64,000 bases of DNA from Nitrospirota bacterium (GTDB lineage Bacteria; Nitrospirota; UBA9217), in NCBI GenBank assembly GCA_043731355.1, contig JAYTJE010000024.1, forward strand, positions 421 to 64,420. The letters are read 5' to 3'. The notes below the pieces were generated by a model, which worked only from the letters and a program-made list of their open reading frames with translations, was not told where the DNA came from and did no database searches. This document shows, piece by piece, positions 115 to 63,501 of the stretch. Numbering within the stretch: the stretch's first letter is position 1; every line of letters begins with the position of its first letter. A program made the position numbers and the translations under genes.

Positions 115-1158
115 TCAACGATTCATACCCTGCCCCATAAAATGGTTATAGCCCTTCGGCTTGAGGATCGCCCGTTTGCCATTACTACTTAAAAACATCT
201 TATTCCCGACAATGATACTTCCTATTTGTGTGGATACTATTTTTAAGGAAAGGAACTTCTTGAGTTTTAACGGCGATACGGTAAAAAGCAGCTCATAGTC
301 CTCGCCTCCGGAAAGAGCGTAATGAAGAGGGCTGGTTTTCAGATGACCGGCTGCCTTGCGAACAGCTGTTGAATCGGGTATCTGGTCGGCGCTGATCTCC
401 GCGCCGACCCCGCTCTCCTCGCAGATATGCCCGAGATCGGACGACAATCCGTCGCTGATGTCTATCATCGCGGTAGCACAGCCGGAGAGAGCTATTTTTC
501 GGCCCCACTCAGTGCGCGGATCTGGTTGAAGATGCTTTCGGATCAGTTCGGAGTTCTGAGTTCGGAGTTCGGAGTTGCGCCCCTTACCCCTGGACCCTGG
601 CCCCTGTCCCCTGTACCCTGCCCTCAGCAGTTCCATCCCCGCCGCCGAATCCCCCAGCGTCCCGGTGACGAAGAGAAGGTCGCCCGGCCGCGCCCCTGCC
701 CTGGTGAGCATTTCCTTCTTTTCGACCTCGCCAAGCGCCGTAACGCTTATCACCAGACCCTGCTGAGAGCGGCACGTATCCCCACCTACGAGGTCGACGT
801 TGTACTTGCGGCAAAGGGTGTTAAAGCCTTTATAAAACTCTTTGATCTGTTCTACGGAGATGCTGGACGGGATGCCGAGCGCTGTGAGGCAAAAGCGGGG
901 AACGCCTCCCATGGCGGCAATATCGCTCAGGTTCACGGCAGCGGATTTCCAGCCAAGGGAATAAAAATCGGTATAGGACAGGTCGAAATGCACACCTTCG
1001 AGCAGCATGTCGGTTGTAGCAAGGATTTTTTTTGAAGGCGGGAGGGAAAGCGCGGCAGCATCGTCTCCTATGCCTATCAGCATTGAAGGTGATCTGCCTT
1101 TGGATTGTGCTTTGATCTTTTTTATCAGGCCGAATTCGCCGAGGTCCGATATTTTCAT
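115..1158 (-). CDS. thiL: Thiamine-monophosphate kinase (AIR synthase-related fold) with an in-frame low-complexity insertion (RAGYRGQGPGSRGKGRNSELRTQNSEL) between its two domains
   Basis: N-terminal GIGDDAA and DxxxEGVHF motifs; PurM-like C-terminal half; ATG start, stop included. Confidence 0.75.
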   Translation of the reverse strand: MKISDLGEFGLIKKIKAQSKGRSPSMLIGIGDDAAALSLPPSKKILATTDMLLEGVHFDLSYTDFYSLGWKSAAVNLSDIAAMGGVPRFCLTALGIPSSISVEQIKEFYKGFNTLCRKYNVDLVGGDTCRSQQGLVISVTALGEVEKKEMLTRAGARPGDLLFVTGTLGDSAAGMELLRAGYRGQGPGSRGKGRNSELRTQNSELIRKHLQPDPRTEWGRKIALSGCATAMIDISDGLSSDLGHICEESGVGAEISADQIPDSTAVRKAAGHLKTSPLHYALSGGEDYELLFTVSPLKLKKFLSLKIVSTQIGSIIVGNKMFLSSNGKRAILKPKGYNHFMGQGMNR

Positions 1159-53086: not shown

Positions 53087-53536
53087 ATGCTCGAAGGTTC
53101 TTTACTCATACGCTGCAGGTCCTGCAGAACGCTCAATCGCGTACCCCTCGACAAACTCGGAAGCCGTCCCGTCTGCGGACAGTGCAAAACGCCGCTCGAA
53201 GTTCCGCATAGTCCCCTGAACGTCACCGCGGCCGCCTATGACCGCGAAGTGAACGACTGGCCCGAATTCGTCCTGGTGGAGTTCTGGGCCAAATGGTGCG
53301 GGTATTGCCGCATGGTTGAACCGGTGGTGAACGACCTGGCCGCAGGCCGGGCCGGACAACTGAAGGTCCTGAAAGCGGATGTGGATGCCGAACCAAACCT
53401 TGCGCAGCGCTTTACGGTCAAAGCAACGCCGACGTTCATGCTCTACCGGAACGGAAGGCTGCTGGGACGGATGGACGGCGCGCCAAAGGAAAAGATCGAG
53501 CTTGTGCTGTGGCTCGAGCGATTCATGAAGACCTGA
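53087..53536 (+). CDS. Thioredoxin with N-terminal zinc-finger extension (Trx2-like); active site WCGYC
   Basis: CxxC...CxxC N-terminal pairs plus thioredoxin fold with a CGYC redox motif. Confidence 0.8.
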   Translation: MLEGSLLIRCRSCRTLNRVPLDKLGSRPVCGQCKTPLEVPHSPLNVTAAAYDREVNDWPEFVLVEFWAKWCGYCRMVEPVVNDLAAGRAGQLKVLKADVDAEPNLAQRFTVKATPTFMLYRNGRLLGRMDGAPKEKIELVLWLERFMKT

Positions 53537-53605: not shown

Positions 53606-54286
53606 TCACCCCGCCATGGACATCCTGAGCATCCCCAGCGGATTCGGTGCGGCTCGCGTGTAACCCTTTTCCTGCACCACCAGATCGAGCGGCAGGCTCA
53701 TGAGGTCGGCAACGTCCGGGGTTGCGTTCCGAAGCAGTGCGGCATCAATGGTCTTGACGTAGGAACGGCAATGGTCGCAGGTCGTGATCGTAAACCCTTC
53801 TTCACCGTCGAAGGTGAGGCGCTTATGCTTGCGGTCATCGTTGTTGAGGCAGACCGGGCATCCTGCCGAGACTGGCGTCCCCGTTGTTTCACAGTAAGAA
53901 CAATGAGGCAGCGGGAAACCTTCTTTGCCACTCGACAGGAGCGCCGGTCGGCCGCTGCAAACCGGGCATCTTCCCTGTTCCCATACCTGCCCTTCCCTGG
54001 GGAGCGCTTCACGGAGCAGCGAGAAATAAGGCCTGCTCAGAAGAAACAGCAGCATGGCAAGATCGTCCTCGTCATAGGGCAGCGAAAAAGCGGGCACTTC
54101 GCGGAACGGGAGACGGGTAAGGTCGATATCTCCCACCTCCATGGCCCGTTTGAGCGGCGCCAGCATGTCCAGCGGCGCCTCCGTGAGGACGGAAAAATGC
54201 TGGAACACCGAATCGATGACCGAACGCGGGTACGCTCTCACCTCACCGGGAGAAAACGCCTGTTCCGTTGAAAGCAGTTCCCGCAC
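53606..54286 (-). CDS. FdhE-like protein (formate dehydrogenase accessory family; four CxxC pairs)
   Basis: CPVC, CSYC, CPVC, CDHC motifs in FdhE-like spacing. Confidence 0.55.
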   Translation of the reverse strand: MRELLSTEQAFSPGEVRAYPRSVIDSVFQHFSVLTEAPLDMLAPLKRAMEVGDIDLTRLPFREVPAFSLPYDEDDLAMLLFLLSRPYFSLLREALPREGQVWEQGRCPVCSGRPALLSSGKEGFPLPHCSYCETTGTPVSAGCPVCLNNDDRKHKRLTFDGEEGFTITTCDHCRSYVKTIDAALLRNATPDVADLMSLPLDLVVQEKGYTRAAPNPLGMLRMSMAG

Positions 54287-54385: not shown

Positions 54386-55471
54386 CTACGGCAGTTTCGG
54401 ATATTGCAGAACGATATCCTCGCCTGACAGCGCTTCAACTAAGAACGTTTTAAGAGAAGCCTTTTCCGCCGCGCTCAGACCGAGCGGCTTGAGCGCCTCG
54501 TTCCCCTTGCCGCCTCCCTTATCGAAAAATTCGATCACTTCCTCAAGCGTCATAAAGATGCCGTTGTGCATGTAAGGTCCGGTCTTCGCTATCTCCCGGA
54601 GCGTCGGCGTCTTAAAGGCTTTCCAGTCTTTTTTATCTTTCGTGATGAGGTATCTGCCGAGGTCCTCGTTCAAGGTGCGATAGTCGTCGAAGTGGTTCAG
54701 CTTTGCCACGAAACGCCGGGTTGCCGTGATCCGGGCGTCGGTCAGGTGTTCGGGATTTTCGGGAACGTTCAACGCGTGGAACCGATCATCGGAAAGCATG
54801 ACCCCGCCGTGGCACTCGCCGCACTTTCCCTTTACCATGAAGACCACGAGCCCCTTTTTTGCATCATCGGACAACACTCCTGTATTGCCCTGGAGATGCC
54901 GGTCAAGAGGAGCGTTCTTCGATATCAGCGTCCGCTCGAACGCGGATAGCGCCATCCCGATGCGCTCCCGGGTGACCTCGCCGCCAAAGACCGTTTGGAA
55001 GGATAGAGAATATTCGGGGACCGCCCTGATCACCTCCTCAAGGTAATCGAGGTTCCGGTTCATCTCGAAAGCAGACATCATGGGGAAAAGCGCCTGGTCC
55101 TCCAGCGTCTGGGACCGGCCGTCATGGAACAGGAACTTCTGAAAGCCGACGTTGATGAGCGTCGGCGCATTGCGCCAGTTCCGCGTTGTGGGGTAGTTCA
55201 ACGAGATTTCAAGACCATCGGAAAATCCTTTATCCGGCTCATGGCAGGTGGCGCAGTTCATGGTGCCGTCCCCCGAAAGCCTCCGGTCGAAGAACAGTTT
55301 TTTCCCGAGCTCGATCTTTTCCGCTGTCTGGGGGTTCTGCTCCGGCACGGGAACGGAGGTGATGGGGAGAAGGTTGCCGGCAATTGCCGTACCTGTCAGG
55401 AGCAGCGCCAATGCGATCAATACAAACGTGCGTATAAACATGATTGACCTCCGCTTATATTGGGGAGACAA
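54386..55471 (-). CDS. Di-haem cytochrome c peroxidase (CCP/MauG family)
   Basis: Two CxxCH haem motifs (CATCH, CGECH), signal peptide. Confidence 0.85.
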   Translation of the reverse strand: MSPQYKRRSIMFIRTFVLIALALLLTGTAIAGNLLPITSVPVPEQNPQTAEKIELGKKLFFDRRLSGDGTMNCATCHEPDKGFSDGLEISLNYPTTRNWRNAPTLINVGFQKFLFHDGRSQTLEDQALFPMMSAFEMNRNLDYLEEVIRAVPEYSLSFQTVFGGEVTRERIGMALSAFERTLISKNAPLDRHLQGNTGVLSDDAKKGLVVFMVKGKCGECHGGVMLSDDRFHALNVPENPEHLTDARITATRRFVAKLNHFDDYRTLNEDLGRYLITKDKKDWKAFKTPTLREIAKTGPYMHNGIFMTLEEVIEFFDKGGGKGNEALKPLGLSAAEKASLKTFLVEALSGEDIVLQYPKLP

Positions 55472-55580: not shown

Positions 55581-55991
55581 CTACCCGATCCACACCACGT
55601 TCACCAGGTGTTCCACCTTCCTAAACTCGGGGTCCCCGGTCACAATACTTGCCTTCTGTTCCATTGCCGCCGCGAGCGCGAAACAATCCGCGTAAGAGAT
55701 GCTGTGCTCGGCCTTGTATTCCGCTGCCTGGAATACGAGGCTGTTCGGCACGGGAAGCACGGTGAAACCCAGGCGCTCGATATGAGCAAGGATCTCAACC
55801 TTCTTCCGGTCGCCGAAGACCCGCCTGGTGATGTAGATGATCTCGCCGAGGTTAATGGCGCAGATGAGCTTTTTCGCCCGAGTGCGGTGCGCGTGCTCAA
55901 GCAGGCGCGCGACCTGCTCGTGTCCTGGTTCCTTTTGGAAAAACTTCAGGAGCGCGTGGCTGTCGAACAGCAGCGGGCCCCTCGGGGTCAC
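55581..55991 (-). CDS. vapC: PIN-domain toxin
   Basis: PIN fold acidic residues; 4-nt overlap with the upstream AbrB-type antitoxin. Confidence 0.75.
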   Translation of the reverse strand: MTPRGPLLFDSHALLKFFQKEPGHEQVARLLEHAHRTRAKKLICAINLGEIIYITRRVFGDRKKVEILAHIERLGFTVLPVPNSLVFQAAEYKAEHSISYADCFALAAAMEQKASIVTGDPEFRKVEHLVNVVWIG

Positions 55992-56215
55992 TTGTAGTCG
56001 CTCCTGCGCTCCCGGAGCAGCTGCCCGGCAAGTGATGGGCGCGACGGCAGAGACCCCTGGGCCGCCTTGATGGGGTCCTCTACCGGCGGAACCAGGTAGA
56101 TGATCCCGCTATACTCCATGATCTGAAGTTCCGTGCCGGGCTCGATGTGGTACTTTTTTCGCAGTCCGGCGGGAATCACAATCTGGCCCTTGGCAAGCGT
56201 TTTGACGAAAGACAT
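55988..56215 (-). CDS. vapB: AbrB/SpoVT-family antitoxin
   Basis: IPAGLRKKYHIEPG swapped-hairpin motif. Confidence 0.7.
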   Translation of the reverse strand: MSFVKTLAKGQIVIPAGLRKKYHIEPGTELQIMEYSGIIYLVPPVEDPIKAAQGSLPSRPSLAGQLLRERRSDYK

Positions 56216-56343
56216 GGCAGGTTGACCTCATTTTAGAGTATGTATGTTTAACAAATTTCCAATATTGTATAACCAGTTCCCGCTATTGTCAACAGAGTTT
56301 CACGAAGTCCCGAAGGGGAAGTTGAATCAGCACGTGCTGGCCG

Positions 56344-56371
56344 ATTATAGTACATGGTCTGTAATTGTCAA
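56344..56371 (-). promoter_or_regulatory. Consensus sigma70-type promoter (minus strand TTGACA-16 nt-TATAAT) upstream of vapBC
   Basis: Both hexamers perfect, 16-nt spacer. Confidence 0.4.
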
Positions 56372-56451
56372 GGTTTTCGACGGGTTTTGCACGGGTTTTG
56401 GGGTTATCGACAGGACTTTCTTCGATGGATCAGCGAATGCGCACTCAGAAA

Positions 56452-57039
56452 TCAGCGCGAAGTGCGCAGTTCTTCATCGATAATCTTCTTGAAATATTCA
56501 AACGGCCGCTCGCCCACGACCCTGCGGCCGTTGATGAAAAACGTCGGGGTATTGTAGAGGTCCATGTCCAAGGCGAGCTTTTTGTCCCGTTCGATCTCCG
56601 CCGCATGTTTCTTTTCGTCAAGGGATGTTGTGAATTTTTTCAGGTCGAGCCCCAGTTCCTGCGCATACCTGATGAGGCCGGCCCGGTCGAGCACCGGGGA
56701 GCGTTTAAACAAGAGGTCATGCATTTCCCAGTATTTTCCCTGGTCCCTGGCGGCAAGCGAGGCTTCGGCGGCGATATGGGAATAATCGCGGTAGATATAG
56801 GGATAGTTTTTGATAACGAGCCTGATCTTTCCCTGATAGGTCTCCATGATCTTTTTGACGGTCGGACCGGCCGCCTTGCAGTGCGGTCATTGGAAATCGA
56901 TGAATTCGACGATCGTCACCAACGCGTTCATGGGACCGGTTGAGGGAGAATCGCCGAGCGGTACGGAAAAGCGTTTCTCCTCGGCAACGGCGGATATTGC
57001 AATAAGGACACCGACGATGATAAGAGCAAGCTTTTTCAT
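56452..57039 (-). CDS. DsbA-family thiol-disulfide oxidoreductase with an in-frame TGA at the first active-site position (FQ-U-PHC): candidate selenoprotein, alternatively a pseudogene
   Basis: Track ORFs 56887-57123 and 56452-56847 are in the same frame and separated by a single TGA exactly where the DsbA CPHC cysteine belongs; signal peptide MKKLALIIVGVLIAISAVA. Confidence 0.55.
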
Positions 57040-57133
57040 GGAATAAGTCTCCTTTCCATTGACCTTAAAAAACGGCGGTAGGACGCGGATGTACGCTGAT
57101 TTTCGCGGATAAGACCAAACCATTCACGTGAAA

Positions 57134-57232
57134 AGGACTTTTACCACGAAGTGCGCGAAGTTAAAATCAATACTTTGATTTTGTCTTTTTCATTTTTTCG
57201 TGAGCTTCGCGCTCTTCGCGGTGAAAAGGCTT
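57134..57232. repeat. ~98-bp palindromic MITE/REP-like element, copy 2 (TTTTACCACGAAGTGCGCGAAG...CTTCGCGCTCTTCGCGGTGAAAAG)
   Basis: Shares TIR and CRCGAAG 9-mer arms with the copy at 31114-31211. Confidence 0.65.
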
Positions 57233-57245
57233 TGCGGTGGCTCAA

Positions 57246-57482
57246 CTACTCATCGATCCGGTACCCGAGCTTCTCGATGCTGTCTTTGGTGATCTTCGTC
57301 AGTTCTTTTTCATCCAGCGCGGTCTCGTCGAACCGGACCGCTATCTTCCCCTGCTCTACGTCGACGGACTCCACTCCATCCATACCGCCGACAAATCGCC
57401 GCAGCGCCAGAGAGCACTCTTCGCAGAGATTATTCCTTACGCTAAACAGCGCAACTTTCATGGATTTCGTCTCCTCCTTCAC
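57246..57482 (-). CDS. Heavy-metal-associated (HMA) domain protein, CopZ-like, with atypical LCEEC motif
   Basis: Beta-alpha-beta-beta-alpha-beta-sized ORF with a CxxC at the canonical position. Confidence 0.55.
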   Translation of the reverse strand: MKEETKSMKVALFSVRNNLCEECSLALRRFVGGMDGVESVDVEQGKIAVRFDETALDEKELTKITKDSIEKLGYRIDE

Positions 57483-57512: not shown

Positions 57513-58721
57513 TCATTTATTGTCCTCGTCCACGGCTTTTTTCAGCATGTCGAGGATTCCCGGGATGGCCGAGGTCACCCGGTTCCAGTTCGGGATAAGC
57601 GGGGCGACCATGAGATTTTCCATGAACGCTTTCGATGCCTGGCTGATGGCCCGGGTAAAGGCTTCAACCGCCTTCGCCTCTTCGTGCCGGTCGAACTCCA
57701 GACCGTTGATCGCGGCATCGGCCTCGTACTTCATGATCGTGTCCTCGGCCTGCCTCAGGTAGGCGACGGACAGGGACTTGAAAAATCCGTCTGAGAACAC
57801 GACCCCCTCGGAGGCGAGCGTCCTGAAAATGGACTTGCAGATGTCCACGGTCATCTTCATCAGGCCTTTTTCCGCGTCATCGGGCGAAAGCGCCTGATGC
57901 TTATGTTCGTACGTCTCGGCGATGTCCACCTGACACACCCGCCGCGGCGAGTAGTTGCGGTATACTTCGGCCAGCGAACCGACCTCCAGGCCCCAGTCCC
58001 AAGGTATGCGGTTGACCCTCGCGAGGTCGATGTTCATGGCAAACTCGCCGGCCAGCGGATAGCGAAAACTGTCGATGAATCTGAGGAACCGGTGCTCCCC
58101 TCCCAGGTTCTGGAGAGACCGCACGAGCGGGGTCACAAGAAGACGCGTGACGCGGCCGTACATCTTGTTCGTGACCCTGCTGTAATAGCCCTTGCAAAAA
58201 ACATAGTCCAGGTTCGGATTGGCCACGGGATAGCACAACCGCGCAAGAAGCGCCCTGCTGTAGTTCACGATATCACAGTCATGGAGCGCGATGACGTCGC
58301 AGGCCCCGCTCGCGAGCACATACCCGTAGGCCAGCCAGGCGGACCGCCCTTTGCCCCGCTCACCGACATCGAGTCCGTTCCGTTTGAGCGTATCGTAGAT
58401 TTCCATGATGCGCTTGCCGTCATTATGGATGATCCTGACGTTGCCCGGGATCGGGGCCATAAACTCCCTGGCACGCTGAAACTCCTTGTCCGAGGCCTTG
58501 TCCAGCACCAGCACGAGCTCGCGCAGGTATCTCACCTTCGACAGTTCCTGCACGATCCCCGGCATGGCCGGTCCCTCGAACTCGGAGTAGAGCGCGGGAA
58601 GGACGAGCGCGACCGGACGGGTCTTGGAGAACTGGAGCAGCTCCCCTTCGAGCCGCTCGAGCGAAGGCTTGCCGAGCTGGTGGAGCGTCGTAATGATCCC
58701 GGTCTGATAAAAATCGGACAT
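57513..58721 (-). CDS. Glycosyltransferase of the mannosyl-/glucosyl-3-phosphoglycerate synthase type (GT55-like)
   Basis: ~400 aa; DCD motif; clustered with MPG phosphatase and glycerate kinase. Confidence 0.5.
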   Translation of the reverse strand: MSDFYQTGIITTLHQLGKPSLERLEGELLQFSKTRPVALVLPALYSEFEGPAMPGIVQELSKVRYLRELVLVLDKASDKEFQRAREFMAPIPGNVRIIHNDGKRIMEIYDTLKRNGLDVGERGKGRSAWLAYGYVLASGACDVIALHDCDIVNYSRALLARLCYPVANPNLDYVFCKGYYSRVTNKMYGRVTRLLVTPLVRSLQNLGGEHRFLRFIDSFRYPLAGEFAMNIDLARVNRIPWDWGLEVGSLAEVYRNYSPRRVCQVDIAETYEHKHQALSPDDAEKGLMKMTVDICKSIFRTLASEGVVFSDGFFKSLSVAYLRQAEDTIMKYEADAAINGLEFDRHEEAKAVEAFTRAISQASKAFMENLMVAPLIPNWNRVTSAIPGILDMLKKAVDEDNK

Positions 58722-58735
58722 GGGCCTTCCTCCCG

Positions 58736-59440
58736 TCAGATGTGTTCGATATCGTCCTTCGCCCCCTTCGCGCTTTTTTCCACGCTTTCCCGTTCTATCA
58801 TCCGCCTCGCCGCGTCAATACCGCCCACGCCGAACGCTATGGCGAGGGCCGCGACGATGCCGCCGAAGATGATCGAGAAGGCGGCGAGCACGATGCCGGG
58901 CGCGACCTGGAGCTGTTCCAGGACCATGGCAAGCACCAGGACGGTCAGGAGGAGGCGTATGGCCTCCGCAAGCATCCTGGCATAGTGAAATCCGTTGTTC
59001 ACGGCCGCGATCAGCGCGGCCCGGCTGACAAATCCGGCGAGAACATAACCGATGACCAGGATCAGGACCGCGGAAAAGGCCCGGGGAAGATACTGGAAGA
59101 ACTGGGCAACGAGCTGATCGACGACCGTGATCTTGAGCGCGTTCAGGCCGCCCATCAGCACGACAATGATCAACAGCCAGAAAACGATAGCGCCAAGCGC
59201 GAGCGAAGGCCTCGCCCAGAGATCCCCCTTGCGAAGCAGCGCGGTCACCCCCATTCTGTCGGACCAGCTGTCAAACTTGACCGCCGCCAGGAACCTCACA
59301 AAAACGAGCCTGACGACCCTGGCCAGCAGTATCCCGAGGAGCAGAATGACCAGCATGGCCAGCAGGTTGGGCAGGAAGCTCTTTATCATGAGAAACACTT
59401 CCTGCAATGGTTCGAGTATCAGATTAAAGAAATCCGTCAT
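58736..59440 (-). CDS. Polytopic membrane protein with tandem conserved-TM-helix repeats (MscS N-terminal-like)
   Basis: Repeated TM/amphipathic units; no catalytic motifs. Confidence 0.4.
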   Translation of the reverse strand: MTDFFNLILEPLQEVFLMIKSFLPNLLAMLVILLLGILLARVVRLVFVRFLAAVKFDSWSDRMGVTALLRKGDLWARPSLALGAIVFWLLIIVVLMGGLNALKITVVDQLVAQFFQYLPRAFSAVLILVIGYVLAGFVSRAALIAAVNNGFHYARMLAEAIRLLLTVLVLAMVLEQLQVAPGIVLAAFSIIFGGIVAALAIAFGVGGIDAARRMIERESVEKSAKGAKDDIEHI

Positions 59441-59457
59441 GGCGCGCCTCCCGAAAG

Positions 59458-60717
59458 TTATTTCCAGTTTGTTGCCAGATATTCCTTGTTGCGCTCAAAG
59501 AACTGGCAGAGTTTTTCGATCTCCGCCTCCGCCTCTTGCTGACCCAGCTGCTCCACCTCCAAGATGAACGACGCGGTCTTCCCGAGATACAGCGGCGTCA
59601 GGGACTTTATGAGATGTTCGGCCGGCAGTTTCTTTTTGTGATAGGCCAGGGCATAATCATAGATGATGCGCGTCCAGAGCGCGAGCGGGAAACGAAACTC
59701 CCGGTCACCCAGTGTGCCGAGCCTTTCCACTTCCTTGAAATCGCCCGCCCCGAGAATATCGGTCCAGAGGGCGCCGAGGTTTTTAAGGCCTTCCCGGAAC
59801 AGATGCAGCATTCTCGGAGTATTCACGTTAATCGGCTCCAGTCCGACCGAGTACTCAAAACCAAAGGCGCCCACCGGTTCTGACCCGCGGACCGGCTTCC
59901 AGGCAGCGCTGTAGGTTTCCATGAGCCCGAACGTGGCGCCGACCACCTGGTAGAGCATGGAGCTCAGATCTGAACCGGGGTCCTTGGCATCATGGATCTT
60001 GGCGCCGAGAAAAGACTGGGTCACCTTGAACTGGTTCGCCAGGGCGGTCGTGGTCATCCAGATGTCGATGCCGAAGCGGGCCACGTCGGTCTGCCAGACG
60101 TCCTTGGTGAGATAGAATTCGGCAAGCCTGCCCGAGAAGCCGAAATCGCCGCCGATGGGCTGGCGCACACGCTTGCCGTACAGCGCCCGGGTCAGCGGAT
60201 ACACGATGCTGTTCGTGATGGTGCCGTCGTACTTATGCCGGTGGTACAGCGGCGCCACATAATCGAACCCGCCCGCAAGCACCGGCTTCACTAAAAGCTC
60301 CACCCATTCAGGGGTGATGCTCCTGAGGTCCGAGTCCACCACAACGCAGGCCTTTGCGTCGAGCGCCCCGGCCACTTCAAAGATCGTGCGGAAGGCGCTT
60401 CCCTTTCCCGGGATGCCGGAATAGGGGGTCGCTATCTTGAACAGAGGCTCCACGCGATGGTGAAGGAGGAGGGAGGCATAGTTTTCGATGGAGGTGCTCC
60501 GGACCACCTCGAGCGTATTGTCCGTTGAACCGCCGTCGGAATTGACGAGCACACTCTTACGGTCAGGGAAATACTTCGCCAGGCCTGCCTGCACGGCCCT
60601 GACCACGTGGCCGATCGTACGGGCGTTGTTGAAGCTCGGTATGCCGACAACGATGTCGGCGGACCCGACCTGCTTGACAAACTCCCGGACCTCCTGACGT
60701 TGAACGAGCTCAGCCAT
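59458..60717 (-). CDS. Mannosylglycerate synthase-like glycosyltransferase (GT78-like, one-step MG/GG synthase family)
   Basis: N-terminal GT-A fold (IVVGIPSFNN...DGGSTD) and resemblance to Rhodothermus MGS central region (FGIDIWM). Confidence 0.5.
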   Translation of the reverse strand: MAELVQRQEVREFVKQVGSADIVVGIPSFNNARTIGHVVRAVQAGLAKYFPDRKSVLVNSDGGSTDNTLEVVRSTSIENYASLLLHHRVEPLFKIATPYSGIPGKGSAFRTIFEVAGALDAKACVVVDSDLRSITPEWVELLVKPVLAGGFDYVAPLYHRHKYDGTITNSIVYPLTRALYGKRVRQPIGGDFGFSGRLAEFYLTKDVWQTDVARFGIDIWMTTTALANQFKVTQSFLGAKIHDAKDPGSDLSSMLYQVVGATFGLMETYSAAWKPVRGSEPVGAFGFEYSVGLEPINVNTPRMLHLFREGLKNLGALWTDILGAGDFKEVERLGTLGDREFRFPLALWTRIIYDYALAYHKKKLPAEHLIKSLTPLYLGKTASFILEVEQLGQQEAEAEIEKLCQFFERNKEYLATNWK

Positions 60718-60776
60718 AGGCGCCTATCCCTGTTTTTAGTATAGCCCAATGAAAGGTCCCTGTAAATCCTACCCTG

Positions 60777-62045
60777 CTATCGCTGGATCAGAATAATCTG
60801 GATATCCATCACGTTCGTACCGGTCGGTCCGGTCATAAGGTGGCGCTTTTCCTTGTCCAGAGCATCAAGTTTGCTGAAAAAATAATAGGAATCGTTGTTT
60901 CTTAGATACGGTTCGGGATGGACGCCGTATTCCCGGGCCTTTTGGGCTGTTGACCCGTCCACGAAGGCGCCGGCGGCGTCTGTGGGGCCGTCCGTGCCAT
61001 CCGTGCCTGCCGAGAGCAGGGTGACGCCGGGCGTACCCGCGATCTCGATCGCAAAGGCCAGGGCAAGCTCCTGGTTCCGTCCGCCTTTGCCGTTCCCGCG
61101 AACGGTGACCGTTGTCTCGCCGCCGTACAAGAGGCAGCGCCGCTCGCCCGGACCCAGCTCATCCCGTGTCTGCAAGGCCTTCCGCGCCATCAGACGGGCC
61201 GCATCCCGCGCTTCGCCCTGAAGCTCCGCCGTGACCACTTCCGCCCGCCATCCCAGGGACGCAGCCTTCTCCCGGGCGGCGGCAAGGGCTTGAGCAAGGC
61301 TTCCGACGATAACGTTCCTTGTGTTCAGGAAACAAACGTCGCCGCTTTTCACGGTTTCCGGCTCCTGCCCAGCCTTTCCTCGTTCGAGGAATAAGACCAC
61401 CTGCGATGGCGCCGCGGCTTTTAATCCATACTTTTCGATAACCGTTGCGGCATCGGCAAAGGTCGAGGTATCGGACGCCGTAGGCCCTGAGGCGATCACC
61501 TCGAGCCGGTCGCCGATGACGTCGGAGAGGATCAGCGTCACCACCGTTGCCGGGTGGGCGATCTGCGCGAGCCTGCCCCCCTTTACCGCCGAAAGGTGCT
61601 TCCGCACCGCGTTCAGATCATCGATGGTCGCACCGGCCCTGAGGAGTAATTCTGTCGTTCTCTGCTTATCCTCCAGCGTGACCCGGGGGAGCGGCGCTAC
61701 CAGCAGCGATGAACCGCCTCCCGAGAGGAGACAAATTACCAGGGTCTTCGCATCAGCGCGCCGGACCAGCTCAAGGATCCTCCGGGTGCCCTGAACTCCC
61801 GCTTCATCGGGAAGCGGGTGGCCGGCCTCGATCTGTTCGACAATCCGGAGCCCCGCAGTATGACCTTTTTTCACGATGATGAGCCCCTCGCTGATCCGTT
61901 CGCCCAGCGCGTCCTCCATCGCCAAAGCCATGCGTGCCGTTGCCTTCCCTGCCCCTACGAGGAGGATACGGGTGTAGGCGCCCAGTTCATACCTGGCTCC
62001 CGCCGCATAAAAATAGCCATTCTCAATGTGTGCCGCCCTGGTCAC
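60777..62045 (-). CDS. Glycerate 2-kinase (MOFRL family)
   Basis: MOFRL N- and C-domains, 422 aa. Confidence 0.75.
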   Translation of the reverse strand: MTRAAHIENGYFYAAGARYELGAYTRILLVGAGKATARMALAMEDALGERISEGLIIVKKGHTAGLRIVEQIEAGHPLPDEAGVQGTRRILELVRRADAKTLVICLLSGGGSSLLVAPLPRVTLEDKQRTTELLLRAGATIDDLNAVRKHLSAVKGGRLAQIAHPATVVTLILSDVIGDRLEVIASGPTASDTSTFADAATVIEKYGLKAAAPSQVVLFLERGKAGQEPETVKSGDVCFLNTRNVIVGSLAQALAAAREKAASLGWRAEVVTAELQGEARDAARLMARKALQTRDELGPGERRCLLYGGETTVTVRGNGKGGRNQELALAFAIEIAGTPGVTLLSAGTDGTDGPTDAAGAFVDGSTAQKAREYGVHPEPYLRNNDSYYFFSKLDALDKEKRHLMTGPTGTNVMDIQIILIQR

Positions 62046-62253
62046 CGCAGTGTAGGGGTCAACGGCAGTGAGCGCGGCAGTATAAATTTCCCTACAATGG
62101 TCCCGCAGAATAGTACTCCTGGCATGTCAAGATGATCACAGCGAGCTGCAATTGCTTCCCGGGGGGGCAAGGACGGAACTGACCTCACGCAACGACGATC
62201 AAAGAGAACATGTCCCCTCCCCCGGCCGGACCGGTGTGTGCATCAAAGGTCTT

Positions 62254-62604
62254 CTATTTTGCTTTCTTTGTTCTGGCCGAACGGGGTTCTTTTTCGAGAT
62301 CGGCGATCTGCGCATCGAGTTTTTTTATCTGCGCTACGAGGTCCTTCACCTGGGGATCGAGCGCAGGGTTCTTGACCCGGGACCCCATGAGCGCATAGAC
62401 ACGGGCGCCCAGGTCGGTCACCCCTTCATGCACCTTCGCCTTGAGCGTCAATATCTTATACTGACGCTTTCCCTCATCGGTCAGTTCCCCTGCCGTCTTT
62501 TGAGCGACGATGGCCCCTTTTTTCATGGCCGCCATGCCCTTCTCCATGCCCTTTTGCAGGTCTTTCTTGATACCTTCCCAGTCGATACTTTCAAAATAAC
62601 CCAT
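62254..62604 (-). CDS. Hypothetical coiled-coil protein
   Basis: ORF only. Confidence 0.3.
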   Translation of the reverse strand: MGYFESIDWEGIKKDLQKGMEKGMAAMKKGAIVAQKTAGELTDEGKRQYKILTLKAKVHEGVTDLGARVYALMGSRVKNPALDPQVKDLVAQIKKLDAQIADLEKEPRSARTKKAK

Positions 62605-62679
62605 GGCAATGCCTCCTCTTGCAGAGATAGGATAATTTGACCTGGTGATGCCGTTCTTTATGAGTATACCATGCCGAGA

Positions 62680-63501
62680 CTACGGCAGCTCGTTGATCAA
62701 TTTTATCACCGCTTCGTTCCACCCGGCGGGACCGATGCCTTCCGTCCGCACCAGACACGGGATGTCGATCCGGGCATCGTGCCTGTTGTTTTCTTTTTTA
62801 ACCAGGACCGGCACGTCGACGCTCAGGAGGAGAGGCAGGTCATTCAGACTGTCGCCGATGCCGATGGTCGTAACGGGTCCGTCTCTCTGTTCATAGAGCC
62901 TTCTCAGGATATTCATTGCCCTGCCCTTATGGTGGTCCCCCATGAAATGGAAGAACCTCCCCTGCGTCCAGCGGAGCCCCGCGCCCTCGATCTCCCCCAG
63001 GAACCGGTCATCAGGCTTGTCAGGAAAAATAAAAGGCTCCTCAAAATCTCTTTGTTTGGCAAGACGGGCTTCTTCAAAGGTCAGTCCGGTCAATGCGGCA
63101 ACTTCTCCGGCGCTCATATCGCCAAAACCGCGGACCGCGATCCCGAGGCGATCACGCATTGCGACGAACCGTTTTCGTATTTCCCCATAAGGCGAACCCA
63201 GGGAGATCACTTCATATCCGTCTTGTTGCTCGCCCGACTCGTGTGCGGGGAAATACCCCTTAGGAAGATAAATTCCCCCGCCGTTTTCGGAAATAAACGG
63301 ATGGATATTGTCCAGGCGCTTCCGGTACACCTCGAGCTCCGCACACGTTTTGCTGGAGCAAAGGACCAGCGGAATTTTCCTCTGCCGTACCAGTTCGAGC
63401 GCCGGCCCCGCTTCTTTAAAGGAGTAGGTCCGGGGATGCAGCAAAGTGCCATCCAGATCGGTGACAATTAGCAGGCGTTGGGAAAAAGTTCGCTCACTCA
63501 T
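62680..63501 (-). CDS. Mannosyl-3-phosphoglycerate phosphatase (HAD-IIB, YedP/MpgP family)
   Basis: HAD motif I DLDGTLL near the N-terminus, 273 aa. Confidence 0.7.
   Translation of the reverse strand: MSERTFSQRLLIVTDLDGTLLHPRTYSFKEAGPALELVRQRKIPLVLCSSKTCAELEVYRKRLDNIHPFISENGGGIYLPKGYFPAHESGEQQDGYEVISLGSPYGEIRKRFVAMRDRLGIAVRGFGDMSAGEVAALTGLTFEEARLAKQRDFEEPFIFPDKPDDRFLGEIEGAGLRWTQGRFFHFMGDHHKGRAMNILRRLYEQRDGPVTTIGIGDSLNDLPLLLSVDVPVLVKKENNRHDARIDIPCLVRTEGIGPAGWNEAVIKLINELP

Follow-up and report, generated by a model that had tools for sequence, protein, structure and literature searches.

Can a TGA codon that interrupts a gene at the position of a catalytic cysteine (Cys) be read as an amino acid? 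This question is raised by a DsbA-like gene on the minus strand of a 64,000-nucleotide stretch of DNA, referred to here as the window, from a Nitrospirota bacterium (lineage UBA9217; GenBank assembly GCA_043731355.1, contig JAYTJE010000024.1, positions 421 to 64,420). An earlier note on this DNA had proposed it as a candidate selenoprotein gene, with selenocysteine (Sec) in place of Cys. This proposal is supported by the conservation of the TGA among close orthologues, by Cys codons at the same place in distant homologues, by purifying selection, and by a constrained RNA hairpin. In this work, we conclude from sequence comparison that the gene is very probably a genuine selenoprotein gene encoding a periplasmic DsbA-like oxidoreductase (Thioredoxin_4/BdbD/ScsC-type), whose nucleophile would be Sec in the motif U51-P-H-C54.

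The split reading frame and its TGA codon

On the minus strand, positions 57039..56452 form one frame of 195 codons, and its sole internal stop is the TGA at 56889..56887 (codon 51). The frame translates as MKKLALIIVGVLIAISAVAEEKRF...VTIVEFIDFQ-TGA-PHCKAAGPTVKK..., so that the TGA lies in the context VTIVEFIDFQ-TGA-PHCKAAG. The two listed open reading frames (ORFs), 56887..57123 and 56452..56847, are pieces of this single minus-strand frame, and the translation confirms that they are colinear, with a single TGA between FIDFQ and PHCKA, as had been claimed. The gene span of 56452-57123 given in the earlier note stands with respect to its end and frame. Its start is corrected: judged from the N-termini of 57 orthologues, the gene begins at the ATG at 57039 and not at 57123. 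The features of the gene are as follows:

56452..57039, minus strand: predicted selenoprotein gene, precursor of a DsbA-like/Thioredoxin_4 thiol:disulfide oxidoreductase with Sec51 (translation, Pfam, orthologue architecture in 57 loci)
57048..57054, minus strand: ribosome-binding site AAGGAGA, 8 nucleotides (nt) 5' of the ATG (read from the sequence)
56983..57039, minus strand: signal peptide, residues 1-19, MKKLALIIVGVLIAISAVA, with an A-V-A cleavage motif (sequence; cleavage site predicted)
56887..56889, minus strand: UGA codon 51, probably read as Sec (orthologue TGA/Cys pattern; aligned with the leading Cys of the CPYC in PDB 3gyk)
56878..56889, minus strand: active-site motif U-P-H-C, residues 51-54 (same dipeptide as in the CPHC form P0031)
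56857..56875, minus strand: putative selenocysteine insertion sequence (SECIS) hairpin, nt +15 to +33, with apical loop GGUCC at 56864..56868 (folding, covariation, synonymous constraint)
56536..56553, minus strand: cis-Pro loop region N-T-P-T-F-F, residues 163-168 (alignment; cis conformation predicted)
56452..56454, minus strand: own stop codon of the gene, also TGA (sequence, orthologues)

A basic and hydrophobic N-terminus like that of the window's signal peptide is found in nearly all orthologues, and a lipobox Cys, looked for in the signal peptide of the selenoprotein, was not found there. An in-frame TGA alone is not rare in this DNA. As many as 74 TGA-split ORF pairs arise mechanically in the GC-rich window, and for this reason the selenoprotein case rests on comparative evidence. 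Among these 74 candidates, only the DsbA-like gene has its TGA at a recognisable redox motif; the location of the TGA at a catalytic Cys codon, together with its conservation in all 57 close orthologues, goes beyond chance.

The comparison draws on a scan of one genome per species, which yielded 80 loci, namely 57 close orthologues and 23 distant homologues. The window gene and the 57 orthologues make up a set of 58 genes, and the alignments used for RNA and selection analyses comprise 56 distinct sequences. The close orthologues, 59-89% identical, belong to two phyla (Nitrospirota/Thermodesulfovibrionia and Desulfobulbales), and the codon before P-H-C is TGA in 57/57 of them. Their carriers include Desulfobulbus sp. 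Tol-SR and the cultured Desulfofustis glycolicus DSM 9705 and Desulfoprunum benzoelyticum DSM 28570. In the distant homologues (42-50% identity, CPFC or CPYC, mostly from Myxococcota), the aligned codon is TGC or TGT in 23/23, and P0031 is a genuine CPHC-form homologue, closer than these distant Cys homologues. Cys-containing homologues, to which the earlier note had pointed as a check, thus place Cys at the TGA in all 23 distant cases and in P0031, and the claim that the TGA occupies the first Cys position of a DsbA-family CxxC holds for these homologues, the CPYC of 3gyk included.

The architecture of the gene is uniform: all 58 genes encode a signal peptide within an N-terminal part of ~50 residues, followed by one TGA and then by an intact C-terminal part of 141-161 residues, and a search for further stops or frameshifts in these genes revealed none. 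Within the window's clade (the window, L001-L008, L011, L047 and L051), the non-synonymous and synonymous proportions (pN and pS) are 0.141/0.694 5' of the TGA and 0.123/0.706 3' of it, giving ratios of 0.20 and 0.18, respectively; over all 56 distinct sequences, pN/pS is 0.26 on the 5' side and 0.25 on the 3' side. Because pN/pS is equally low on each side of the TGA, both halves are evidently translated and constrained, which rules out a pseudogene as well as a product made from the downstream part only. A decaying duplicate, which the earlier note had considered as a possible refutation, is therefore not what is seen, since each of the 58 genes is intact 5' and 3' of the TGA and pN/pS in the window's clade is ~0.2 in either part. 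In the window, TGA terminates 24 of the 59 long ORFs as well as the DsbA-like gene itself; it is an ordinary stop codon there, so its recoding must be context-specific.

The family of the encoded protein was assessed with a Pfam search run with Cys substituted for the stop. Thioredoxin_4 (PF13462) matches at 1.1e-26 with 94.5 bits (cut-off 23.2) over residues 31-189, thus spanning the TGA at codon 51, and DSBA (PF01323) matches at 1.5e-19 with 71 bits (cut-off 25.6). By sequence, the closest solved relative is the thioredoxin-like oxidoreductase 3gyk of Silicibacter pomeroyi (6e-20), whose CPYC aligns to U-P-H-C. Other solved relatives are Caulobacter ScsC (7rgv), B. subtilis BdbD (3eu3, 4e-14), and actinobacterial and Wolbachia DsbAs; matches to the solved BdbD/3gyk/ScsC relatives span 6e-20 to 1e-9. 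The T-P-T-F motif is invariant in 26 aligned sequences and aligns to GTPSF of 3gyk. The fold was taken from the AlphaFold model of the Cys-form P0031, which is 57-70% identical to the aligned orthologues and is not the window protein. This model, with a predicted local distance difference test (pLDDT) score of 76 and lower confidence around the active site, displays a thioredoxin fold with an inserted helical domain (residues 119-190). In a Foldseek search, it matched 3gyk/BdbD/ScsC at 1e-11 to 1e-12, with a target-normalised TM-score of up to 0.83, and its best PDB matches are all DsbA-like. The DsbA-like identity assigned in the earlier note is thus one on which Thioredoxin_4, DSBA, the PDB sequence matches and the fold agree.

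We are highly confident that the product, as predicted from its sequence, is a DsbA-like oxidoreductase that is soluble in the periplasm, belongs to the BdbD/ScsC-like branch and uses Sec as its nucleophile. It shares with BdbD, 3gyk and the ScsC proteins of Caulobacter, Proteus and Salmonella the thioredoxin fold, the helical insertion and, residue for residue, the active site, except that theirs is Cys-x-x-Cys. The oxidase BdbD has BdbC as its partner, and the reductase/isomerase ScsC is associated with copper stress, whereas no such partner is conserved beside the window family; among the conserved neighbour genes, no DsbB/VKOR-like re-oxidant gene was found. The E. coli-type DsbA model NF008198 gave 25.5 bits, compared with its cut-off of 279. 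The best NCBIfam match is NF041057, the Rcas_1661 thioredoxin-like (seleno)lipoprotein (3.9e-28), which likewise has a Sec/Cys active site. It differs in that the match, with 98.7 bits, stays far under the cut-off of 190, the alignment is confined to the C-terminal 160 positions, and the lipobox is missing here.

On the opposite strand, a plus-strand ORF of 192 amino acids (56365..56943) appeared to be conserved in 37 loci. It was rejected as a shadow ORF antisense to the selenoprotein gene, a mirror of this GC-rich gene.

The hairpin 3' of the UGA codon

A bacterial SECIS hairpin, by whose presence or absence the earlier note proposed to judge its candidate, is present at +15..+33, with positions numbered from the U of UGA, and entropy, pS and covariation indicate that it is under selection at the RNA level. 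One criterion by which selenoprotein genes have been recognised (PMC1088965) is a stem-loop shortly 3' of the UGA whose apical loop is small and includes a G, and the hairpin at +15..+33 with its loop GGUCC has this form.

The strongest evidence for an RNA element is the frozen synonymous sites, which need no folding model. At codons +5 to +10 (A-A-G-P-T-V), the four-fold third-position entropy is 0.00, 0.00, 0.38, 0.00, 0.17 and 0.13 bits, respectively. Along the rest of the gene, the third-position entropy is 0.8-2.0 bits and mostly >1.2 bits, and at the Pro codon +1 it is 1.73 bits. Similarly, the SECIS codons have a pS of 0.000 within the window's clade and of 0.057 over all sequences, and elsewhere pS is 0.70-0.76. 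The family therefore offers an unusually clean case of a SECIS inside a coding sequence, with six successive four-fold codons frozen in a gene that is otherwise synonymously saturated.

In the predicted structure, nt 15-21 (GGCGGCC) pair with nt 27-33 (GACCGUC), leaving an internal C20·A28 mismatch and the loop G22-G23-U24-C25-C26; the element alone has an energy of -10 kcal/mol. The minimum free energy (MFE) structure of most orthologues is this hairpin or one nearly identical to it, often with an added lower stem, and the loop base G23 is invariant among them. This register resembles that of the E. coli fdhF SECIS. Across the 56 distinct sequences, it pairs 88.5% of cells, C17 pairs with G31 in 52 sequences, and three pairs carry double changes that keep the pairing. 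The pairs G18-C30 and G19-C29 both change to A-U in this manner, and the C20·A28 mismatch becomes U-A in five sequences, C-G in 14 and U-G in one. Three compensated pairs were reached by 3/500 shuffles, and the covariation score by 0/500. The Cys-form L082 has V-S-I-G-P-I-V at this place and a weaker hairpin (-4.6 kcal/mol), and the distant Cys homologues lack the GGUC loop.

The comparison with the E. coli fdhF SECIS used a sequence that was confirmed to lie under fdhF in a check against 5,419 E. coli genomes. In both elements, the stem begins 11 nt after the UGA at G15G16, and the loop bases G22-G23-U24-C25 lie at identical positions. A bulged U17 is a defining feature of the fdhF-type SECIS; it is absent here, and most members have the C20·A28 mismatch instead. 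The elements also differ in loop size (5 nt here compared with 4 nt) and in stem sequence, and for the hairpin described here, SelB binding is only predicted.

By analogy with E. coli, a ribosome reaching the UGA at 56889..56887 would meet the hairpin 15-33 nt further 3', whose GGUCC loop would recruit SelB·GTP·Sec-tRNA(Sec). Sec would be inserted without termination, and translation would continue to the ordinary TGA stop at 56454..56452. The signal peptide of 19 residues would direct the protein to the periplasm. There, Sec51 and Cys54 may cycle between a selenol/thiol pair and a selenenylsulfide, exchanging with substrate disulfides, and Sec would presumably allow faster exchange than Cys.

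Selenocysteine decoding and alternative explanations

Several results weigh against a selenoprotein gene in the window. An MFE fold computed from the window sequence alone, over the 60 nt that follow the UGA, was no better than shuffles (z = 0.58) and did not contain the hairpin; comparative analysis took over from this test. RNAalifold favours a shifted register, in which nt 18-19 and 21-24 pair with nt 28-33 around a 3-nt loop, and in which 97.6% of cells are paired. That register shows zero compensatory changes, and each sequence deviation breaks a pair. The fdhF-like register is preferred because the deviating sequences fit it better and its geometry coincides with that of the E. coli fdhF SECIS. 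The RNAalifold register thus appears less likely, and the exact pairing given here is provisional. No Rfam family matched the hairpin at the gathering threshold when the window was searched; a permissive scan of 56780..56920 returned only a chance snoRNA match (E = 6.8), which speaks neither for nor against the hairpin. Regarding the decoding machinery, a tRNA-Sec search of the window and the 57 loci found none, and tblastn with E. coli SelA, SelB and SelD detected no selA, selB or selD in the window or in any of the fetched loci. In Nitrospirae, selC may lie inside selB (PMC13188914). A second selenoprotein gene was sought in the 64-kb window with a scan for TGA-split genes and with tblastn for FdhA, and none was found. 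The absence of Sec machinery within 64 kb is uninformative.

A SelD-like match in the window (115..1158, minus strand; 27% identity, 1e-10) was rejected, as it corresponds to the thiamine-phosphate kinase ThiL of the same superfamily (342 bits, cut-off 184). In a quick scan, this ThiL gene could pass for Sec machinery.

Direct signs of Sec use come from related loci. In 37 of them (L010, L012, L013, L015-L027, L029, L031-L034, L036, L038, L039, L041-L046, L048-L050, L052, L053, L055 and L056), an FdhA with the motif EHQARI-TGA-HSATVAAL is encoded 4.1-4.8 kb 5' of the DsbA-like TGA, which means that those genomes decode Sec. The window's clade has no adjacent Sec-FdhA, and for the window's own genome we infer Sec decoding, as probable, from the selection data.

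The FdhA Sec codon is itself followed by ~45 nt that are near-invariant at the nucleotide level (...GCAACUGUUGCGGCUCUGGCAGAGUCG...). With this element, whose shape is unlike that of the DsbA-like hairpin, the cluster contains a second SECIS within coding sequence. In L029, ~4.5 kb 5' of the DsbA-like TGA, the conserved stretch after the FdhA Sec codon contains a short run of N (masked or unresolved bases).

The alternative that survives best, although it is very unlikely, is that the family consists of selenoproteins and the window copy is a relic, no longer made in full length in a genome without Sec decoding. The window's clade lacks the adjacent Sec-FdhA that proves Sec use in other loci, and in the window an inserted toxin-antitoxin pair separates the gene from its conserved partner. 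Yet the contrast within the clade between the pS of 0.000 in the SECIS codons and that of 0.70 elsewhere would not last after the loss of decoding, and pN/pS in the clade is 0.18-0.20 on both halves.

It is highly improbable that the TGA is a true stop and that the real product is a C-terminal fragment of ~131-142 residues made from an internal start, as gene callers annotate it. More than 100 database entries, including WP_183352137.1 and WP_035227251.1, have been called in this way, and many orthologues do have GTG or ATG at codon +4. In the window, however, codon +4 is AAG, which is no start, and the first downstream ATG is codon +13. Neither the signal peptide, nor strand beta1, nor any of the active site would be part of such a fragment, while purifying selection acts on the 50 upstream codons as strongly as on the downstream part, and these codons are preceded by a conserved ribosome-binding site and a signal peptide.

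A nonsense pseudogene, in which a TGC-to-TGA mutation killed a DsbA-like gene and left the two ORFs as decaying remnants, was the alternative named in the earlier note. It would need one base change, and no Sec machinery was seen in the window, but the same TGA occurs in 57/57 orthologues from two phyla, the 58 genes contain no other stops or frameshifts, pN/pS is ~0.2 on both sides of the TGA, and the hairpin downstream is frozen at synonymous sites. These conservation data effectively refute it, and we regard it as extremely improbable.

An error of sequencing or assembly can practically be dismissed, as can an alternative code that makes TGA a sense codon (Trp or Gly): a JGI gene call (P0008) has W at this codon, but the TGA is identical in an independent assembly and in 57 other genomes, it terminates 24 of the 59 long ORFs and this very gene, and Trp at the position of the CxxC nucleophile would be inactive. 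The independent assembly is the Logan assembly of run SRR22198286, which is identical over window positions 55936..57174, TGA included; it does not represent independent sequencing.

The selenoprotein gene favoured here belongs to a kind that has been known for 20 years; what is new is an orthologous group that public annotation does not reflect. DsbA-like UxxC proteins were reported as selenoproteins in 2005 from nine Sargasso Sea sequences, were later found in Anaeromyxobacter, Desulfovibrio desulfuricans and Desulfotomaculum reducens, were counted in 41 organisms in a survey of 5,200 genomes, and are named 'DsbA-like protein form 1' in a 2026 review (PMC1088965, PMC1794560, PMC5029168, PMC13188914). 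None of these four papers mentions a formate dehydrogenase (FDH) or di-haem context. With form 1 (Zhang, Gladyshev; PF01323), the window family shares the DsbA-family fold, Sec in place of the first Cys of CxxC, a SECIS just 3' of it and widespread Cys homologues, and both are concentrated in lineages of anaerobic sulfate reducers. COG2761 (FrnE-type DsbA) is the group given for the Sargasso family. The window protein matches best with Thioredoxin_4 and is similar to BdbD/ScsC; the two families were compared by description only.

A protein search returned more than 100 entries with 80-93% identity, nearly all of them 138-142 residues long, covering ~70% of the query and starting with 'MAAGPTVKK' just past the stop. 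The RefSeq records WP_183352137.1 and WP_035227251.1 (RefSeq length 142 amino acids) and the entries from GenBank metagenome-assembled genomes and from JGI are fragments without the active site, named 'thioredoxin domain-containing protein', 'DsbA family protein' or 'protein-disulfide isomerase'. Exported selenoproteins of Nitrospirota and Desulfobulbales, as predicted here, are thus stored in RefSeq, GenBank, JGI and ENA as fragments of 131-142 residues that lack signal peptide and active site, which biases selenoproteome counts and functional inference for both groups.

The JGI metagenome gene call P0008 mentioned above reads the Sec codon as Trp (FIDFQWPHC), presumably with a code in which TGA is sense. 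Entries of this type could pass for a natural Trp variant of the active site.

Neighbouring genes and a possible formate dehydrogenase link

For the gene context, ORFs within 7 kb were clustered in 56 loci and then followed with tblastn. The gene order in the window is the selenoprotein gene, a VapB/PIN pair, a di-haem gene, an FdhE-like gene and a divergent thioredoxin 2 gene:

55988..56215, minus strand: VapB-like antitoxin, 75 amino acids (MazE_antitoxin, weak)
55581..55991, minus strand: PIN/VapC toxin, 136 amino acids (PIN domain, 1.6e-18; overlaps the antitoxin gene by 4 nt)
54386..55471, minus strand: CCP_MauG-family di-haem c-type cytochrome enzyme with two CxxCH motifs (Pfam CCP_MauG, 2.4e-48)
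53606..54286, minus strand: FdhE-like formate dehydrogenase accessory protein with a C-terminal rubredoxin-like domain (Pfam FdhE_C, 8.9e-11)
53087..53536, plus strand: thioredoxin 2, TrxC-like, with an N-terminal zinc finger, divergent neighbour (NCBIfam TrxC, 4.8e-31, 107 bits against a cut-off of 125)

The neighbourhood had been described in the earlier note as redox-rich, which is right and understated, as the peroxidase-like and FdhE-like genes are conserved partners. The di-haem gene lies directly 3' of the selenoprotein gene in all 54 loci whose sequence extends at least 2 kb downstream, and the median start of its ORF, 443 nt past the TGA, coincides with the selenoprotein gene's stop codon. 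Among NCBIfam models, the di-haem protein comes nearest to MauG (223 bits) and MbnH (200 bits) but reaches neither cut-off. An FdhE-like gene follows the di-haem gene in 34/53 loci; the window's FdhE-like protein matches NCBIfam FdhE at 4.8e-14, also under cut-off. The thioredoxin 2 gene stands beside the FdhE-like gene only in the window, L001 and L002 (89-91% identity). Among the Cys-form homologues (Myxococcota, L082), the di-haem/FdhE context was sought and not found.

In the window, the VapB/PIN pair (55581..56215) sits between the selenoprotein gene and its di-haem partner. Since neither the VapB-like nor the PIN gene has a tblastn match in any of the 57 orthologous loci, the pair looks like a recent insertion that split the conserved selenoprotein/di-haem pair.

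In 38/49 loci, genes for a Sec-containing FdhA, for FdhB and for a membrane subunit (NrfD-type or cytochrome b-type) lie 5' of the selenoprotein gene. This arrangement suggests that the selenoprotein and di-haem genes are functionally tied to a periplasmic Sec-formate dehydrogenase, for which the two products might serve as an accessory or protective redox module. Counting against such a tie, it follows from gene order only, the window's clade has no adjacent FDH genes, and tblastn for FdhA and FdhB found neither in the 64-kb window.

Two architectures of the FDH cluster occur in loci L009-L057, 0.8-2.3 kb 5' of the DsbA-like gene. The first combines an NrfD-type membrane subunit with an FdhB that shares 48-63% identity with the probe, taken from L055; the second has a cytochrome b561-type subunit and an FdhB 33-41% identical to this probe. 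Both contain the same selenoprotein/di-haem gene pair.

The linked FdhA is closest to that of Nitratidesulfovibrio (Desulfovibrio) vulgaris FdhAB (6SDV; 2.7e-111 over the C-terminal third), a similarity that concerns the neighbouring FdhA and not the DsbA-like protein. The N. vulgaris enzyme is soluble, whereas the linked FDHs have a membrane subunit of the NrfD or cytochrome b type. According to the sources cited here, an allosteric disulfide between C845 and C872 of N. vulgaris FdhAB holds an oxygen-protected resting state, oxidative inactivation of the enzyme is discussed in terms of reactive oxygen species, the disulfide switch is described from purified-enzyme work only, and no Dsb-type partner for it is named there (PMC11323313, PMC13397495). 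C845 and C872, numbered along the aligned chain, both fall on Cys residues of the linked FdhA, and this pair is kept in 38/38 of the linked FdhAs, which are the only ones counted. A full-text literature search for work linking formate dehydrogenase, cytochrome c peroxidase, DsbA and selenocysteine found none.

It is plausible that a periplasmic selenol/thiol oxidoreductase beside a peroxide-reactive di-haem enzyme acts as an operator or protector of the FDH switch. A more specific proposal is that the selenoprotein and the di-haem enzyme form a peroxide-linked periplasmic module which sets the C845-C872-type disulfide of FdhA and would thus be the physiological partner of the switch. This proposal is tentative and on balance improbable; it is drawn from the di-haem adjacency in 54/54 loci, the FDH placement in 38/49, the switch Cys pair in 38/38, and the Cys forms that occur without this context. 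The di-haem pairing and the embedding among FDH genes suggest a way in which anaerobes may protect or regulate oxygen-sensitive CO2-reducing enzymes.

On the other side of the selenoprotein gene, just upstream (57246..57482, minus strand), lies an ORF of 78 amino acids with an L-C-E-E-C motif. It shows a weak match to a CopZ-type copper chaperone in NCBIfam (8.5e-8) and a faint one to NF041115, 'UxxU metal-binding (seleno)protein' (2.3e-4), all under cut-off; it has no Pfam match at 1e-5 and no counterpart in related loci. The region beyond it (57513..63501, minus strand) has the look of an osmoadaptation island, with a glucosyl-3-phosphoglycerate synthase-like gene (364 bits, cut-off 700), a second related glycosyltransferase gene, and genes for a mechanosensitive channel, a DUF4147/MOFRL (glycerate kinase-like) protein and a HAD Hydrolase_3 protein. 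Beyond this island, the Logan contig L083 carries genes for an Na+/H+ antiporter and a CLC channel.

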